Origin: Saprospirales bacterium
GTDB taxonomy: Bacteria > Bacteroidota > Bacteroidia > Chitinophagales > Saprospiraceae
NCBI GenBank assembly: GCA_002698985.1
Contig: PAAY01000027.1
Location: 11,231-75,230 of the forward strand
Direction of reading: 5' to 3'
Length of the DNA: 64,000 nucleotides
Under the pieces are notes generated by a model. That model saw only the letters and a program-made list of their open reading frames with translations. It did not search any database and was not told the origin of the DNA. Below are positions 6,859-23,450 of this stretch, piece by piece. Numbering within the stretch: the first letter of the stretch is position 1; every line of letters starts with the position of its first letter. The position numbers and the translations under genes are program-made.

Positions 6859-9441
6859 CTATTCTCCCTGCACCGTCCGGCCGGAGATCAGGTTTCCGAA
6901 GAAAACGGCATTGGCCATGATCTTGTTGGTGCCATACCAGAAGGCCCTGAAACTGGTGTTGTCCGTCAGGCAAATGACTCGGCCGGCGCCAATGCCTCCC
7001 ACTGCAACAGAGGCACTGCCGGGAGCCAGTTCATCAAAACTTTCGTGCATGTAGCCCGCCATCAGTGGCTTGTCGCTGTAAATGATGGGGGTGGCGTAGG
7101 GGTTTTTGGCCGGCTCCAGAAAGCGGTTGGAGCTCCTGAACACCGGCAGTTTGCTGTTACGGTAGCCGTAGCACAGCGGGTGTGTCAAGTCCAGTTCTGC
7201 CTCAAAAATGGAACCCGATAGCCGCAGTGCTCCCGCGTCGTCATCGGCACCGGCGTAGGGTTTCCGGCCGGTTTCCTTTTCGTCGTTTTCCGACTTTTTG
7301 AAGTTCAGGTTCACCAGCTTTTGGTTTACGGCCCAGTTCACCGCATTTTCCAGTGCGATGAGCACATTGCCGGCTTTTACCCAGTTGCGCAAGGCATCCG
7401 TATCCAATCCTCTGATTCGCCCTCCGGGCAACACCAGCACATTGAAACGGGCCAGGGTGGACTCATTGAGGTCATTAGCTTCGATCTTCGTCACCGGCAT
7501 CTGGTAGCGGGTATCCAACAGATGCCAGATCTCACCGGCATCGTAAGAGGTGATGCCGTCCCCGACCACTAGGGCCACTTTAGGTTTTCTGACAGTGAGC
7601 ACCTTGCGGCTGCCCAGGTCATAACCGCCGGGTGTCAATCCGGTGCTGATGCCGTAGATGGGCAGTTGCCCCAGCCGGGCAGCCTCGTCCAGGATTTTGC
7701 GAAGCGAAGCCTTGTCCATGGGTTGGTTTTGCGTCGGAACAATGATGGCGCCGTAAGTGAAAGCCCTGTTACCTTCCGGGGTGACGGCCGTGAAAGGCGT
7801 TCCGGCCACTTTTACCCGCACCTTGTTTTTCTGAAGGTGGTAAAGGGCTGCCGGGGCAAGGTAGTGGTCCCAGTCGAAAGCCCATGCGTAGGCATTGCCG
7901 TCGTCTTTCACTTCGCCTGCGGCAACGGGGAGGGTGGTGCCTGTGAGTTGTTTGCCGAGCAGACCGGGCAGTGCCTCACCGGCGGCCTCGTACTTCAGGT
8001 TGAAGGCCAGCGGCATGGTCCAGGCGCTGATGTCGTAAAAGAGGCTGTCCTCGAAGCTCGTCTCCCGCTGGAAAATGCCCTGGATGAGGCGGTACTGCGG
8101 CTGATCAAATGGAATGACGTAGGCTTTGCCGGGTTCGAAGTCGGTGCCGTTGAGGGTGGTCTTTTTAGTCAGTTCGTAAACTTTGATGTCTTGCCTCAGC
8201 AGCATTTCCACGAAGCGACTCAGCCTGACGGGGTCGTAGTCATCACCTACAACGAAACCCCGGCGTTTGTCCCTGCGGGCCAGGTCCAGGCCGGTTTTAT
8301 AGTGCTCCCGCTGAAAGTCCAGCAGTTCCTTCCGCAATGCCACGATGGCCGCATGGGTGGAGAGCGCCGTGGTCACCTGGTTGCGGATGGTGAAAGGAAA
8401 GGAGAGCGGGCCGTTGTCGGTTTTCTGCAAATGCCCCCGGCTGCTGGCCTGTTCGAACAGGATGCCGATGCAACCCTGCGCATCGGGGAAGGTGGAGCCT
8501 TTGCCGTAGTAGAAATCGTCGTAACCCTCCTCGGTGTAATACAGCGAGCCGATCTTGTCCAGGGCTTTGGCGTGGAAGGTGGCGATTTTGGCGGTGAGTT
8601 CCTGGTTCTTTTTGGGTGTGATGGGATTGATGCGGCTCTGCACCCCAGGCATGAAAAAGAAGGTGCTGTTGGTGCCCATTTCGTGGTGGTCGGTCAACAC
8701 GTTGGGCTTCCATTTCTGGAACAGCGCAATGCGTCCCTGGCTTTCCGGGTGCTGTGCCGGCAGCCAGTCCCGGTTCAGGTCGAACCAGTAGTGGTTGGTG
8801 CGGCCCCGTGGCCAAACCTCATTGTACTCCCGGTCTGCCGGATCGCCAGTGAGGTTTTTGTTTTTGTGCATGTTGGTCCAGGTGCTGAAACGCTGAAATC
8901 CGTCGGGGTTGAAACAGGGATCGAAAATGATAACGGCATTCTGCAACAGGGTTTCTACCTCCTGGCTCTTTCCCGCAGCCAGGTAATAGGCCACAAGCAG
9001 TGCACCATTGGCACCGCTGGCTTCATTGCCGTGTATGCTGAAACCCTGGTAGAGCACTACGGGCATGTCGCTGATGTCCACATCTGCCGAGCGGGCGGGG
9101 TCGGTCAGCGCCACATGCTGCCGGCGGATGTCCTCCAGCCGGCCGTGGTTTTCCGGTGAGGTGATGATCAGGTGAATGAGCGGCCGGTTTTCGTAAGTGC
9201 GGCCGTGTTCTTCCAGTTTGATGCGGTCGGGAGCGGCGGCAGCAAGGGTCCGGTAGTAGTACAGCAACTGGTCGTGGCTGGCGTGCCATTCACCCACCTG
9301 GTAGCCCAATACAGATTCCGGCGTCGGAATGGCCGGGTCGTATTCGATGTCGGGCAGGTAGTAGGTGATGGGCAGCGACTGTGCCGGCATTGCGCCAGCG
9401 ATGAAAAAAACAGCAAGTAAAGTAGTGAGTAATTTGCGCAT
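6859..9441 (-). CDS. M14-family zinc metallocarboxypeptidase, secreted
   Basis: 860 aa with a signal peptide (MRKLLTTLLAVFFIAGAMPAQS). Contains FSIHGNEASG, which fits the HxxE zinc motif of M14 carboxypeptidases, followed by a long C-terminal extension. Confidence 0.85.
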   Translation of the reverse strand: MRKLLTTLLAVFFIAGAMPAQSLPITYYLPDIEYDPAIPTPESVLGYQVGEWHASHDQLLYYYRTLAAAAPDRIKLEEHGRTYENRPLIHLIITSPENHGRLEDIRRQHVALTDPARSADVDISDMPVVLYQGFSIHGNEASGANGALLVAYYLAAGKSQEVETLLQNAVIIFDPCFNPDGFQRFSTWTNMHKNKNLTGDPADREYNEVWPRGRTNHYWFDLNRDWLPAQHPESQGRIALFQKWKPNVLTDHHEMGTNSTFFFMPGVQSRINPITPKKNQELTAKIATFHAKALDKIGSLYYTEEGYDDFYYGKGSTFPDAQGCIGILFEQASSRGHLQKTDNGPLSFPFTIRNQVTTALSTHAAIVALRKELLDFQREHYKTGLDLARRDKRRGFVVGDDYDPVRLSRFVEMLLRQDIKVYELTKKTTLNGTDFEPGKAYVIPFDQPQYRLIQGIFQRETSFEDSLFYDISAWTMPLAFNLKYEAAGEALPGLLGKQLTGTTLPVAAGEVKDDGNAYAWAFDWDHYLAPAALYHLQKNKVRVKVAGTPFTAVTPEGNRAFTYGAIIVPTQNQPMDKASLRKILDEAARLGQLPIYGISTGLTPGGYDLGSRKVLTVRKPKVALVVGDGITSYDAGEIWHLLDTRYQMPVTKIEANDLNESTLARFNVLVLPGGRIRGLDTDALRNWVKAGNVLIALENAVNWAVNQKLVNLNFKKSENDEKETGRKPYAGADDDAGALRLSGSIFEAELDLTHPLCYGYRNSKLPVFRSSNRFLEPAKNPYATPIIYSDKPLMAGYMHESFDELAPGSASVAVGGIGAGRVICLTDNTSFRAFWYGTNKIMANAVFFGNLISGRTVQGE

Positions 9442-9620
9442 GAGGCAGTTGTTTTTGTTGGGCGGCTAAGATAGTTTTTTGCGGGAAGAGCGTGGCACTT
9501 CATGCCCGTCTTAGATTGAGTGAGAAACAGCACTTTGGCATCCCTTACGGGATTAGCAGGATTTAGTCAGTGGACAGAGGGGCAGAGTAGTTAATCTCTA
9601 CCTACCCCTGACATAAGTAC

Positions 9621-9735
9621 CCCCTTTGTCATCCGTCGGAGGCGGATCTTCCTAACAAGCGGTTAGGTACATGGGTGCCCACAGTGCTCTGAACTCCCCG
9701 TTGGTAGTTCCTCCTTTGGAGGATGACAAAGGGGG
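9621..9735 (+). repeat. MITE-like ~115-bp element, copy 1
   Basis: 14-bp terminal inverted repeats CCCCTTTGTCATCC ... GGATGACAAAGGGG. Subterminal hairpins ATCCGYC-GGAG-GCGGAT and TCCTCC-TTY-GGAGGA. Confidence 0.85.
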
Positions 9736-9777
9736 GAGTGGTTGCTTTCATGATTCCTGCTGTTCAGTCAAAGCTAG

Positions 9778-9892
9778 CCCTCTTTGTCATCCGCCGGAGG
9801 CGGATCTTCAAAGAAAACGGGCAGGTACATGGGCGCCGACAGTGCCCTGAAAACCTCATTGGTAGTTCCTCCTTCGGAGGATGACAAGGGGG
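9778..9892 (+). repeat. MITE-like ~115-bp element, copy 2
   Basis: Same architecture as copy 1, largely identical by eye. Immediately preceded by GCTAGC at 9773-9778. Confidence 0.85.
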
Positions 9893-9898
9893 AGGGGG

Positions 9899-9985
9899 GC
9901 CGCAGGTGGATCTTCAAAGAAAACGGGCAGGTACATGGGCACCCACAGTGCCCTGAACGCCCCGTTGGTAGTTCATCCATTGATA
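9899..9985 (+). repeat. MITE-like element, copy 3 (5'-truncated, degenerate 3' end)
   Basis: Shares GGATCTTCAAAGAAAACGGGCAGGTACATGGGCNCC-ACAGTGCCCTGAA with copy 2 but lacks the left terminal repeat. Confidence 0.75.
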
Positions 9986-10111: not shown

Positions 10112-10753
10112 ATGATTTTAGTAGGAAAAAAAGCACCGGATTTCAAAGCTGCTGCCGTGGTGAACGGCAATGAGATCGTCGAAGATTTCTCACTCTCCGA
10201 TTTCAAAGGCAAGAAGTACGTCATCCTGTTTTTCTATCCCAAAGACTTCACCTTCGTTTGCCCCACGGAGCTTTTCGCCTTTCAGGAAAAGCTGGAAGAA
10301 TTTGAAAGCCGCAACTGCCAGGTCATCGCCTGCTCTACCGACACAGAAATGTCCCACTGGGGCTGGCTCCAGATGGAGCGCAAGTTGGGTGGCATCAAGG
10401 GCGTGAAATACCCCCTGGTGGCCGACACCAACAAGACCATTGCCGCCAACTACGATGTGCTGGCCGGTGAGTGGGATTACAACGAAGAGGGAGAAATGAT
10501 CGCTACCGGCGAGATGGTGGCCTACCGCGGCCTGTTCCTCATCGACAAAGAAGGCATCGTGCGCCACCAGGTGGTCAACGACATGCCCCTTGGCCGCAGC
10601 GTGGAGGAGGCCCTCCGGGTGCTCGATGCCCTGCAGTACACCGAACAATACGGCCAGGTATGCCCCGCCAACTGGCACAAAGGCGAAGAAGCCATCCCCA
10701 CCACCCACGAAGGCGTGGCTGAATATCTGGAAAGCAAGTTCCGTCAGAACTGA
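10112..10753 (+). CDS. Typical 2-Cys peroxiredoxin (AhpC/Prx1 subfamily)
   Basis: Peroxidatic Cys motif DFTFVCPTE and resolving Cys motif VCPANW. 213 aa. Confidence 0.92.
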   Translation: MILVGKKAPDFKAAAVVNGNEIVEDFSLSDFKGKKYVILFFYPKDFTFVCPTELFAFQEKLEEFESRNCQVIACSTDTEMSHWGWLQMERKLGGIKGVKYPLVADTNKTIAANYDVLAGEWDYNEEGEMIATGEMVAYRGLFLIDKEGIVRHQVVNDMPLGRSVEEALRVLDALQYTEQYGQVCPANWHKGEEAIPTTHEGVAEYLESKFRQN

Positions 10754-10914: not shown

Positions 10915-13116
10915 TCATTCGTTACCCTTTGCTTCCCGCTCGTCCAACACGGCCAGCCCTTGGAGTACATTTTTTGAATACGGATGTTCCGCCCCCAACT
11001 TCGACAAAAAGACCGCTTTCGCCTTTTCGAGGAGGCTGCGCGCTTCACCGAACTCTTTCATGTTCATGAGCACGGCGGCCAGGTTTGAGTAACTCACAGC
11101 GGTGTTGGGATGTTCGGTGCCAAAATTTTTCTCATCAGACTCCACGGCCTTTTCCAATAGCTCCTTTGCCCCTTTGTAATCTCCGAGGGCCTTAAGCACC
11201 GAAGCCAGGTTTGAGTAAGTCACAGCGGTTGTGGGATGTTCTGGGCCAAAATTTTTCTCCGCAGATTCCATGGCCTTTTGCAATAGCCCCTTTGCCGCCT
11301 TGTAATCTCCGAGGGCCTGAAGCACCGAAGCCAGGTTTGAGTAAGTCACAGCGGTTGTGGGATGGTGGGGGCCAAAATTTTTCTCATCAGACTCCACGGC
11401 CTTTTCCAATAGCCCCTTTGCCGCCTTGTAATCTCCGAGGGCCTGAAGCACCGAAGCCAGGTTTGAGTAAGTCACAGCGGTTTTGGGATGGTGGGGGCCA
11501 AAATTTTTCTCATCAGACTCCATGGCCTTTTGCAATAGCCCCTTTGCCCCCTTGTAATCTCCGAGGTCCTTAAGCACTAAAGCCAGGTTTGAGTAACTCA
11601 CAGCGGTGTTGGGATGTTCTGGGCCAAAATTTTTCTCATCAGACTCCATGGCCTTTTCCAATAGCTCCTTTGCCGCCTTGTAATCTCCGAGGGCCTGAAG
11701 CACTAAAGCCAGGTTTGAGTAAATCACAGCGGTTTTGGGATGTTCTGGGCCAAAATTTTTCTCCGCAGATTCCATGGCCTTTTGCAATAGCCCCTTTGCC
11801 CCCTTGTAATCTCCGAGGTCCTTAAGCCTCAAACCCAAGTTGTTTCGGAGGGTAGCCTTTTCACTGAATTCGAGGTGTTCGGCGGCATCGAGCACGGCCT
11901 GCCCGTAGGGTATCCAGGGGAATTTGTCCACCGGGTTGTCTTTCGTTTGGTCTATGTAGAGTTTTTGTGTAAAAGTTTCCACCAGCGGCAGCAAGTCTTC
12001 AAGGGTGGGTGGGTGGGCATGGGCTACAATGGCTTTTATCAGCCGGTGGGTGCCGTAGCGGTGTTTGGCGGGTTGCATGAGCCAGCCTAGCTTATAAAGT
12101 GTCTGTAGGTTGTTGGCAAAGGCAGTGGTCTGCCCTTCTTCGATTTGGAACCACTCGGCCAGGTCTTTGGCGGGGTATCCTTCGGCAGTAGGGGGCAGGG
12201 CGGCCATTTGCTTCAGCAGTCGCATCAGTTCGGGGCGTTGCGCAATGCCGGAGAGGTCGAAGGCCTGCAAGAGGTGGCGGTACAAAGTGGTTTCACCGCC
12301 GGCGTGTTCCAGTTCCACGATGGTTTGCAGGCTGGCAGCATCGAGCTGGTTGTTCTTCAGGTATTCGGCTAGCTCTTCCACGGTTTCCATTATCGGGTGG
12401 GTGTCCAGGATCTTGGCAAAGAGCTCGATGCTGAGGGTGTGCCGCTCCAAAGTGTTTTCCAGAAAGTCAGTCAACGCAGCTTCATCCTGTGGCTTTTCGC
12501 AATGTTTCCGGAAGAGTGCTTTGGCGGCCTCCAGGTCGAGTTTCCCCAATTCTTTCACTTTGATGTTGCCAATGACCTGTCGTGAAGTCAGCAGCACATG
12601 CCAATTTGGACCGTGCGGTAGTTTACCCAGGGCCTCTCTACTCGACTGATCCACATTGTCGAGTACGAGCAGAGCACGTTTTCCCTCTGCACGGTTTTGC
12701 AGAGCAAGCATCATTTTTTCATAAACGGCTTCGTAAGGTTCTCCAGGCTCCTGTTTGATGCCAAGGGCTGCCTGCAAACCTGGATCATTGACCACGGATT
12801 CCTGAAGTGTCGTCTTTTGCTCGATCCAGGCAAGGTGGTCGTACTGTTCCCGGTATTTGTTGGCGTACAGCTTGGCCAGGGTAGTTTTGCCAATGCCACC
12901 TATGCCGTTCATGAGGAGCAGGCTGGAAGATTCCTCCAGCAGTGCTCTGAGGTCCGAAAGGTCATCGTCCCGGCCAATTACGTCGTTGGGATCGATGTGC
13001 GGAATCGAGGTGAGGTAGTGGGGAATTTCCGGTGACTCCGAGCCGTGCATGTGTACCGGCCCGTAATTCTTCTCAATATTGACCTGTTTGTTTGCAATAA
13101 ATTTCTTCTTTTCCAT
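10915..13116 (-). CDS. STAND NTPase: short N-terminal motif + NB-ARC P-loop domain + C-terminal TPR (kinesin-light-chain-like) repeats (NLR-like)
   Basis: Walker A GIGGIGKTTLA and Walker B LLVLDNVD, both typical of NB-ARC. At least 7 x 42-aa TPR units (NFGPEHPxTAVxYSNLAxVLxxLGDYKxAKxLLxKAxES). The N-terminus MEKKKFIANKQVNIEKNYGPVHMHG shares a motif with the upstream small protein. Confidence 0.88.
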   Translation of the reverse strand: MEKKKFIANKQVNIEKNYGPVHMHGSESPEIPHYLTSIPHIDPNDVIGRDDDLSDLRALLEESSSLLLMNGIGGIGKTTLAKLYANKYREQYDHLAWIEQKTTLQESVVNDPGLQAALGIKQEPGEPYEAVYEKMMLALQNRAEGKRALLVLDNVDQSSREALGKLPHGPNWHVLLTSRQVIGNIKVKELGKLDLEAAKALFRKHCEKPQDEAALTDFLENTLERHTLSIELFAKILDTHPIMETVEELAEYLKNNQLDAASLQTIVELEHAGGETTLYRHLLQAFDLSGIAQRPELMRLLKQMAALPPTAEGYPAKDLAEWFQIEEGQTTAFANNLQTLYKLGWLMQPAKHRYGTHRLIKAIVAHAHPPTLEDLLPLVETFTQKLYIDQTKDNPVDKFPWIPYGQAVLDAAEHLEFSEKATLRNNLGLRLKDLGDYKGAKGLLQKAMESAEKNFGPEHPKTAVIYSNLALVLQALGDYKAAKELLEKAMESDEKNFGPEHPNTAVSYSNLALVLKDLGDYKGAKGLLQKAMESDEKNFGPHHPKTAVTYSNLASVLQALGDYKAAKGLLEKAVESDEKNFGPHHPTTAVTYSNLASVLQALGDYKAAKGLLQKAMESAEKNFGPEHPTTAVTYSNLASVLKALGDYKGAKELLEKAVESDEKNFGTEHPNTAVSYSNLAAVLMNMKEFGEARSLLEKAKAVFLSKLGAEHPYSKNVLQGLAVLDEREAKGNE
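11078..11833. repeat. Six near-identical 126-bp tandem units encoding the TPR array of the NLR-like gene
   Basis: GCCAGGTTTGAGTAA recurs at 11078, 11204, 11330, 11456, 11582 and 11708, an exact 126-nt period. Degenerate units flank the array on both sides. Confidence 0.9.
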
Positions 13117-23335: not shown

Positions 23336-23420
23336 TGTCCAACCCTCGTCTCTCCAGACGGACAGGGACAAGCTGGACAGATGAGCCTGGGAGGCTACAC
23401 TTTACTTTCATTAGCCATTG

Positions 23421-23450
23421 GAAGATCCGCCTTCGGCGGATGACAAAACG
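23421..23450 (-). repeat. Fragment of the MITE-like element (left end), inverted orientation
   Basis: GAAGATCCGCCTTCGGCGGATGACAAA is the reverse complement of TTTGTCATCCGCCGGAGGCGGATCTTC from the 9.6-9.9 kb copies. Confidence 0.75.

Follow-up and report, generated by a model that had tools for sequence, protein, structure and literature searches.

The 670-bp gap between an M14 carboxypeptidase gene and an AhpC/TSA peroxiredoxin gene in a Saprospirales genome holds a cluster of hairpin-rich repeats. The cluster lies between two divergent genes and points toward the peroxiredoxin. The question raised by this locus is what these repeats are, whether transposon, regulatory structure or something else. 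It lies in a stretch of 64,000 nucleotides, here called the window, which corresponds to C33:11231-75230 of a 4.83-Mb assembly (G000) in 102 contigs that is 95.5% complete. The original prediction, made from the letters of the window, described two full copies and one truncated copy of a structured element in this gap, and the copies, the size of the gap and both genes were all verified (Table 1). The closest named relative of the peroxiredoxin protein is from a Saprospiraceae MAG (78% identity).

A repeat search of the window returned two 122-nt copies (9620-9741 and 9778-9899) that are 83% identical and a third (9899-9978) that has 80 nt in common with copy 2 at 89% identity. Tandem Repeats Finder reported no array at 9620-9985 because the spacing of the units is irregular (158 and 106 nt). 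The full units have inverted arms of 33-34 nt that are 76-79% complementary (9620-9652/9703-9735 in unit 1; 9779-9812/9859-9892 in unit 2). The outer 14 nt are perfect in unit 1 (CCCCTTTGTCATCC/GGATGACAAAGGGG) and the outer termini of unit 2 are CCTCTTTGTCATCC/GGATGACAAGGGGG, so that the 14-bp inverted termini, like the subterminal hairpins, were found as described in both full units. The left hairpin of unit 1 (ATCCGTC-GGAG-GCGGAT) contains one G.T pair, and GTAG stands directly before its right hairpin. Unit 3 (9899-9985) is truncated: the outer stem is missing, as is the first (5') half of its left hairpin, and the right hairpin is decayed (GGTAGTTCATCCATTG); the central hairpin GGGCAC-CCACA-GTGCCC that had been noted in this copy is present. 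Both full copies fold far better than chance (z about -5.9; 0 of 200 dinucleotide shuffles as good), with predicted energies on the plus and minus strands of -61.5 versus -53.9 and -58.6 versus -45.0 kcal/mol. Open reading frames that cross the units, among them a 53-aa frame at 9723-9884 that begins at the ATG of GGATGACAAA, were rejected as coding, as the unit lengths found in the genome (139, 158-160, 177-179 and 197 nt) do not preserve the frame.

Table 1. Features of the repeat cluster, its flanking genes and related loci. Positions are those of the window unless a contig (C) is given.
Feature	Positions	Strand	Remarks
M14 carboxypeptidase gene	6859-9441	-	
Degenerate heptamer-plus-leader module (GGATTAGCAGGATTTAGT...AGTA)	9550-9619	+	Abuts unit 1; from alignment to other loci
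Unit 1 (full doublet), with outer stem CCCCCTTTGTC/GACAAAGGGGG, hairpins at 9631-9647 (left) and 9709-9723 (right) and a core between them	9620-9736	+	
Conserved linker (AGTGGTTGCTTTCATGATTCCTGCTGTTCAGTCAAAGCTAG)	9737-9777	+	Recurs in L032 and as the inter-unit spacer of the C10 and C25 arrays
Unit 2 (full doublet), with hairpins at 9789-9805 (left, ATCCGCC-GGAG-GCGGAT) and 9867-9881 (right, TCCTCC-TTC-GGAGGA)	9778-9892	+	
Second junction type (AGGGGGG + CCGCAGGTGGATC), then unit 3	9893-9985	+	Recurs in sister-lineage array
AhpC/TSA 1-Cys peroxiredoxin gene	10112-10753	+	
Solitary hairpin module (TTTTGTCATCCGCCGAAGGCGGATCTTCC) in other composite repeat (CCAGGTACCACTAAGAAGGCAGGTACC..., 4 genome copies)	23420-23447	-	
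Head-to-tail array, 7 units	C10:36573-37580		
Head-to-tail array, at least 3 units	C10:40224-40726		
Head-to-tail array, at least 8 units	C25:75219-76643		Runs off contig

Further copies elsewhere in the genome, for which the original prediction had proposed a search, are numerous. A profile built from 11 full copies gave 108 raw matches with nhmmer, which reduce to 60 non-overlapping copies in 30 clusters in the 4.8-Mb assembly. On a crude ORF map all 30 clusters are intergenic. At least 12 of them touch contig ends, so the true number is higher; the assembly is broken by these repeats at a dozen or more contig ends. The view that the copies are just a local duplication, or that the palindrome is due to chance, for which only the three adjacent copies would speak, has a negligible probability: there are 60 copies genome-wide, the reversed version of the search pattern described below matches nowhere in this genome against 53 matches for the pattern itself, and shuffled sequences never fold as well. 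The many other copies, together with the compensatory stem changes described below, mean that a reading as local duplication only fails. The genome copies are 75-84% identical to the window units and therefore show no recent burst.

The three longest arrays (Table 1) share a linker, ...ATTCCTGC...GCTAG, of ~40 nt, which is conserved (...GAGTGGGTGCCTGCTTGATTCCTGCTGCCCAATCAATGCTAG) and matches the linker between units 1 and 2 of the window. The reiterated unit is therefore the doublet plus its linker, 139-197 nt in all. Its length varies through alternative right hairpins (TCCTCC-TTC-GGAGGA, TCCGCC-TACC-GGCGGA and two extended versions of ~35 nt) and through a 19-nt insertion in the left hairpin. 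The cores are more alike within arrays (identity 0.87-0.88) than between them (0.64-0.83), which fits local tandem growth; unequal recombination between units, or slippage during replication, would let arrays expand and contract. On C10 an 837-aa gene (C10:37633-40146, minus strand) is flanked by two of these arrays, of 7 and at least 3 units, in the same orientation, a set-up for its deletion or duplication via recombination.

Twenty-five full copies were placed in a structural alignment and their consensus fold was computed with RNAalifold, which picked two hairpins independent of each other and a terminal stem made up of TTTGTC/GACAAA and C/G runs. Each unit consists of two inverted, 7-bp, GC-rich hairpins (ATCCNCC-loop-GGNGGAT) with a core of ~60 nt between them; the outer flank TTTGTC/GACAAA is invariant and the inner flank is of the type GNAG. 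Compensatory changes occur within each arm. The left-arm pair 16:45 is GC in 12 copies, AU in 9, GU in 2, UA in 1 and unpaired in 1 (paired in 24 of 25), and the right-arm pair 114:144 is UA in 7, GC in 6 and unpaired in 12 of the 25, the unpaired cases being, by eye, the extended variants with C opposite A. Across the arms, positions 16:144 pair in only 3 of 25 copies and 45:114 in 7 of 25, and the arms show no mutual covariation in this alignment. For the model of two local hairpins both the covariation score and the number of cells changed on both sides exceed those of all 500 shuffles. For one long hairpin neither does, and this model loses. The central hairpin and a putative core helix are paired in 72-73% of cells and show no compensatory change among the 25 copies. 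The covariance analysis that had been suggested for the stems thus upholds the arm hairpins and fails to uphold the central one. The conserved features are two self-contained hairpins with invariant outer flanks, not one long RNA-like fold.

Such an architecture is familiar from other bacteria. In neisserial mosaic elements, where dRS3 flanks RS blocks, and in pneumococcal BOX elements, short inverted repeats bracket variable blocks to form modular arrays whose copy number varies between strains and which have no transposase of their own; the number of units in E. coli BIMEs also varies between strains. The present elements differ from the neisserial mosaics and BOX in having no CGTC tag and another order of modules and, unlike in that comparison, we know of no phage or integrase target role for them. 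(Neisserial dRS3 corresponds to CGTC-1 in PMC3733652.) The elements also resemble REP dimers and REPINs (PMC3116915, PMC3733652). There, as here, a spacer lies between two short, GC-rich hairpins in inverted orientation, which can be folded separately or as one long hairpin, the elements are intergenic and present in tens of copies, heterodimers with different stems occur, the tetranucleotide is on the inner side of the stem (the ‘TT’ arrangement), dimers cluster in tandem with flanking DNA and some dimers sit in longer palindromes. Reiteration of dimers in tandem with flanking DNA and their occurrence inside longer palindromes have both been described for REP families (PMC3733652). As in the BIMEs of E. 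coli (PMC3733652), palindromic units alternate in orientation with few conserved linker motifs, and the combination of palindromic units and a limited set of conserved linkers in variable arrays is found here. Unlike the BIMEs, the sequence is unrelated, the units are larger (doublets of 115-155 nt plus a linker of ~40 nt) and heptamer tandem repeats are combined with them. The cluster is probably made up of an orphan REP-dimer (REPIN/BIME-like) DNA repeat in a short tandem array, one module of the intergenic mosaic of this genome. The element is ordinary in kind but new in sequence.

A role in RNA has to be weighed against this reading, either as a cis-regulatory leader of the peroxiredoxin mRNA or as an array of small-RNA genes processed from a long transcript. 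The strong predicted folds, which are better on the plus strand for the two window copies, the compensatory changes in the hairpins and the orientation of the array toward the peroxiredoxin gene might all be taken in its favor. However, a scan of Rfam 15 (E<=10) found no family at E<0.1, only chance matches to microRNA models, the best being the mir-204 model at 18.8 bits against a gathering score of 48.4. The Bacteroidota -7 box (TAnnTTTG) was not seen in the unit by reading. The poor conservation of the core and central hairpin also tells against a functional RNA, as do the counts of G.T and A.C mismatches in the genuine stems, which show no strand bias, though cases are few. Compensation in palindromes can, moreover, arise at the DNA level by template switching and so is not by itself a sign of RNA. 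The other 29 clusters flank unrelated genes in either orientation, none adjoins a peroxiredoxin gene, the array at C10:40286 is antisense to both its neighbors and that on C13 is antisense to its upstream gene. Of the gaps that hold clusters 3 are convergent, 9 tandem and 4 divergent, roughly as expected for random placement. Set against GC skew, the orientation counts are 12 versus 6, in an assembly where the skew does not track gene-strand bias. A structured RNA is quite unlikely, and the suggestion that the cluster is a regulatory module for the peroxiredoxin found no support. Judged from sequence and context, nothing appears to link the units specifically to control of this gene, and an annotation as regulatory RNAs of neighboring genes would be inappropriate. 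Most likely the array is a passenger that is tolerated in this divergent gap, and the 127 unique bases between the end of the array and the start codon are where the promoter of the peroxiredoxin gene is expected.

The REP-dimer reading places the element within a wider repertoire of intergenic repeats. Its left half, comprising the first ~60-70 nt (outer stem, left hairpin and GGATCTTCACAA...GCTACA.GG..GCC), occurs elsewhere without the right arm: after a heptamer array and a leader of ~50 nt ending in CCCAGT (C91, C20, C45, C47, C12 and C31), before the REP GCTCGTCACGAGC...GTAGCGGCCTCTGGCCGC (C43, C80 and C3), or after CCAGGTACCACTAAGAAGCCAGGTACC (C27, C38, C97 and window 23420-23447). The segment that precedes unit 1 in the window, together with the left half that follows it, matches C91:54851-55020 at 99 of 139 positions and is similar to the copies on C20, C45 and C47; by this alignment it is a remnant of the heptamer-leader module. 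The original prediction, which saw no vocabulary in common with the heptamer family, was wrong on this point, since the array begins next to such a module and its linker carries the GCTAG hub. The inverted left-end fragment that it placed near 23421-23450 is real, on the minus strand, but belongs to a different composite repeat (Table 1). The heptamer-leader module, the GCTAG hub and the logic of small hairpins are common to the element and the mosaic repeats of the genome, whereas the complete doublets, which have a linker of their own, and their long head-to-tail arrays set it apart as a separate sub-family, found within the window only at 9620-9985. The element is an optional module of the heptamer/GCTAGC mosaic that has formed doublets and arrays of its own. 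A solitary palindromic element of 138 nt at C3:31093-31230, with ends CTTTTTGTCAT...GGATGACAAAAAG and an unrelated core, may be another member of the same superfamily.

The distribution of the module was followed with the pattern TTGTCATCCNCC-N3-5-GGNGGAT. It has 53 matches in this genome, 91 in one congener (G022), 0-4 in each of 32 other congeners and none in 298 genomes from 167 other genera of the family; the reversed pattern, used as a control, had no match in any of these searches, and a scan of viral contigs gave no match. G022 has a nested-palindrome MITE of ~230 nt whose apex is the hairpin, either single or as a doublet, with outer inverted repeats GGTAGTGTTAATTTTGACG (GGTAGTGTTAATTTTGACGTGAT) and ~45 homogeneous copies, many of them at contig ends. 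These copies have 8-bp target duplications (CAATATTC, TGAAATAC and TCCTTTGC), and their center is either one TTTGTCATCCGCC-TTTA-GGCGGATGACAAA hairpin, whose loop occurs in both orientations, or a doublet in which the core is 47 nt long (examples are loci L124, L125, L128 and L129). No copy of this MITE with an empty center was found, hence there is no sign of the hairpin having inserted into it. A further congener, G012, has solo doublets of 85-110 nt, and two metagenome genomes have analogous doublets adjoining CACTCGTTCTTTGT tandem repeats. In the latter (Ga0182744_1000002, Ga0180219_1003271 and Ga0182744_1000008; loci L166, L167 and L169) the mosaic runs from CACTCGTTCTTTGT-type tandem repeats into TTTGTCATCCGCCAAAGGCGGATCT...AGATCCCG...CGGGATGACAAAGAAC doublets, and one copy has a GTAG-REP-like hairpin (GTAGTTCGCGGCCTCTGACCGC) in place of the right arm.

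Could the window units, then, be classical MITEs, deletion derivatives of a DDE cut-and-paste transposon moved through their 14-bp terminal inverted repeats? The termini, the small size, the lack of an ORF and the presence of the same hairpin at the center of the G022 element are what this view would draw on, but it is unlikely. In this genome no target-site duplications occur at the borders of units or arrays, many of which fall inside units, the outer repeat of the G022 element is absent, and no terminus was found near the two IS110-like, two DDE_Tnp_1 and two IS256 genes or the Y1 gene. The divergence among copies argues against a recent burst, and head-to-tail arrays with a conserved linker are not a product of transposition. 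The original prediction had also looked to a parent transposon with the same termini; neither this nor target duplications were found, although the parent could be unassembled, given the completeness of 95.5% in 102 contigs. The idea of a non-autonomous transposon family thus holds as far as a dispersed, non-coding repeat with inverted termini is concerned, and lapses for the duplications and parent expected of a MITE. No transposition event or empty site was observed.

It is very unlikely that the host itself uses the site, with the invariant TTTGTCAT-hairpin serving as a binding site for a protein of the nucleoid, of recombination or of the topoisomerase type, while the elements that carry it merely spread it. 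The hairpin and flank, ~25 nt, are nearly unchanged across composite elements and species in which the surroundings differ, as such a site would be. Yet most congeners, and all other genera of the family that were searched, gave no match to the module, a patchy distribution that argues against a needed host function, and no candidate binding protein was found. The same conservation across its carriers, from the doublet arrays of this genome, the 230-nt MITE of G022 and the solo doublets of G012 to the analogous doublets of Ga0182744 and Ga0180219, leaves a slim chance that the TTTGTCAT-hairpin-ATCT module represents a new Saprospiraceae element/enzyme pair, with a hairpin-specific nuclease or transposase other than a RAYT. 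Alternatively, and with no better a chance, the arrays might be transcribed, with cleavage at the hairpins yielding RNAs of unit length.

At the locus itself, ten independent marine assemblies with an identical peroxiredoxin, Tara Oceans records among them, are 100% identical to the window over 750 nt. A sister lineage (L032) with flanks 97.8% identical (356/364) has at least 8 units in shuffled order, joined by both junction types of the window. The array is therefore stable within a clone and remodeled between close lineages. The sister sequence is a contig of 1425 nt (RFGN01000574.1) in a MAG labeled Gammaproteobacteria, its flank match covering the start of the M14 peptidase gene and the leader; it is probably mis-binned, to judge from the 97.8% identity to a Saprospiraceae flank. 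Downstream of the peroxiredoxin, an NB-ARC/TPR gene (window 10915-13116, minus strand) is called at 565, 607, 649, 733 or 775 aa among marine assemblies (loci L174-L183) whose upstream sequences are otherwise identical. These lengths differ in steps of 42 aa, which correspond to a TPR unit of 126 bp and reflect either real copy-number polymorphism or assembly collapse.

If the array is an orphan REP-dimer repeat, new loci would be seeded by a trans-acting enzyme that recognizes the hairpin and its invariant flank, for which a single-strand-specific HUH/Y1 (RAYT-like) transposase acting in trans would be the prime and most natural suspect. The sole Y1_Tnp gene of the genome (IS200-like, RAYT-type; C58:22362-23015) is a candidate of this kind, but it is flanked by inverted arrays of a different, GTAG-tagged REP (GTAGCGGCCTCTGGCCGC), not by the TTTGTCATCC hairpin. 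Of 13 Y1 loci in this genome and five congeners, none has a hairpin module within 1.5 kb. A homolog of the C58 protein is encoded by 19 of 34 congeners, with no relation to module counts; the modules are abundant only in G000 and G022, and the latter has no homolog at E<=1e-10. A link to this RAYT was accordingly rejected, having failed on the flanks, on the neighborhood in six genomes and on phyletic correlation. Beside the stem, 42 of the 53 exact modules have the tetranucleotide GAAG, and the right arms carry GTAG (11 of 25), GCAG (11 of 25) or another tag (3 of 25), so the GTAG signature of RAYT substrates is not kept; 6 of the 53 modules have a GTAG REP within 200 nt. A search of the genome for a TnpB gene was negative. 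Unlike RAYT-linked REPs, then, this hairpin flanks no RAYT gene and, unlike in GTAG REPs, its tag is GNAG (mostly GAAG or GCAG) and the invariant part is the opposite flank, TTTGTC/GACAAA. With no transposase identified, the family is an orphan.

Much is known of REP-type repeats and mosaics in Proteobacteria, and very little in Bacteroidota. The same architecture of hairpin dimers, linkers and tandem reiteration is now seen in an abundant, uncultured marine member of the Saprospiraceae, and a family without the RAYT association thought to drive REPs is a test case for how orphan palindromic repeats spread.

The surroundings of the Y1_Tnp gene, outside the window at C58:21600-23500 (locus L034, 640-2498), are of interest on their own as a REPtron-like arrangement in a Bacteroidota genome. 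The 2013 survey lists GTAG REPs in Proteobacteria, Cyanobacteria, Chloroflexi and the PVC group and not in Bacteroidetes (PMC3733652). Here the gene, which encodes a Y1/HUH transposase of 217 aa, has inverted repeat units of ~240 nt on both sides, each with the GTAG-tagged hairpin and a second hairpin (GCTCGTCACGAGC), and the GTAG-tagged REP is present in 14 copies on 8 contigs.
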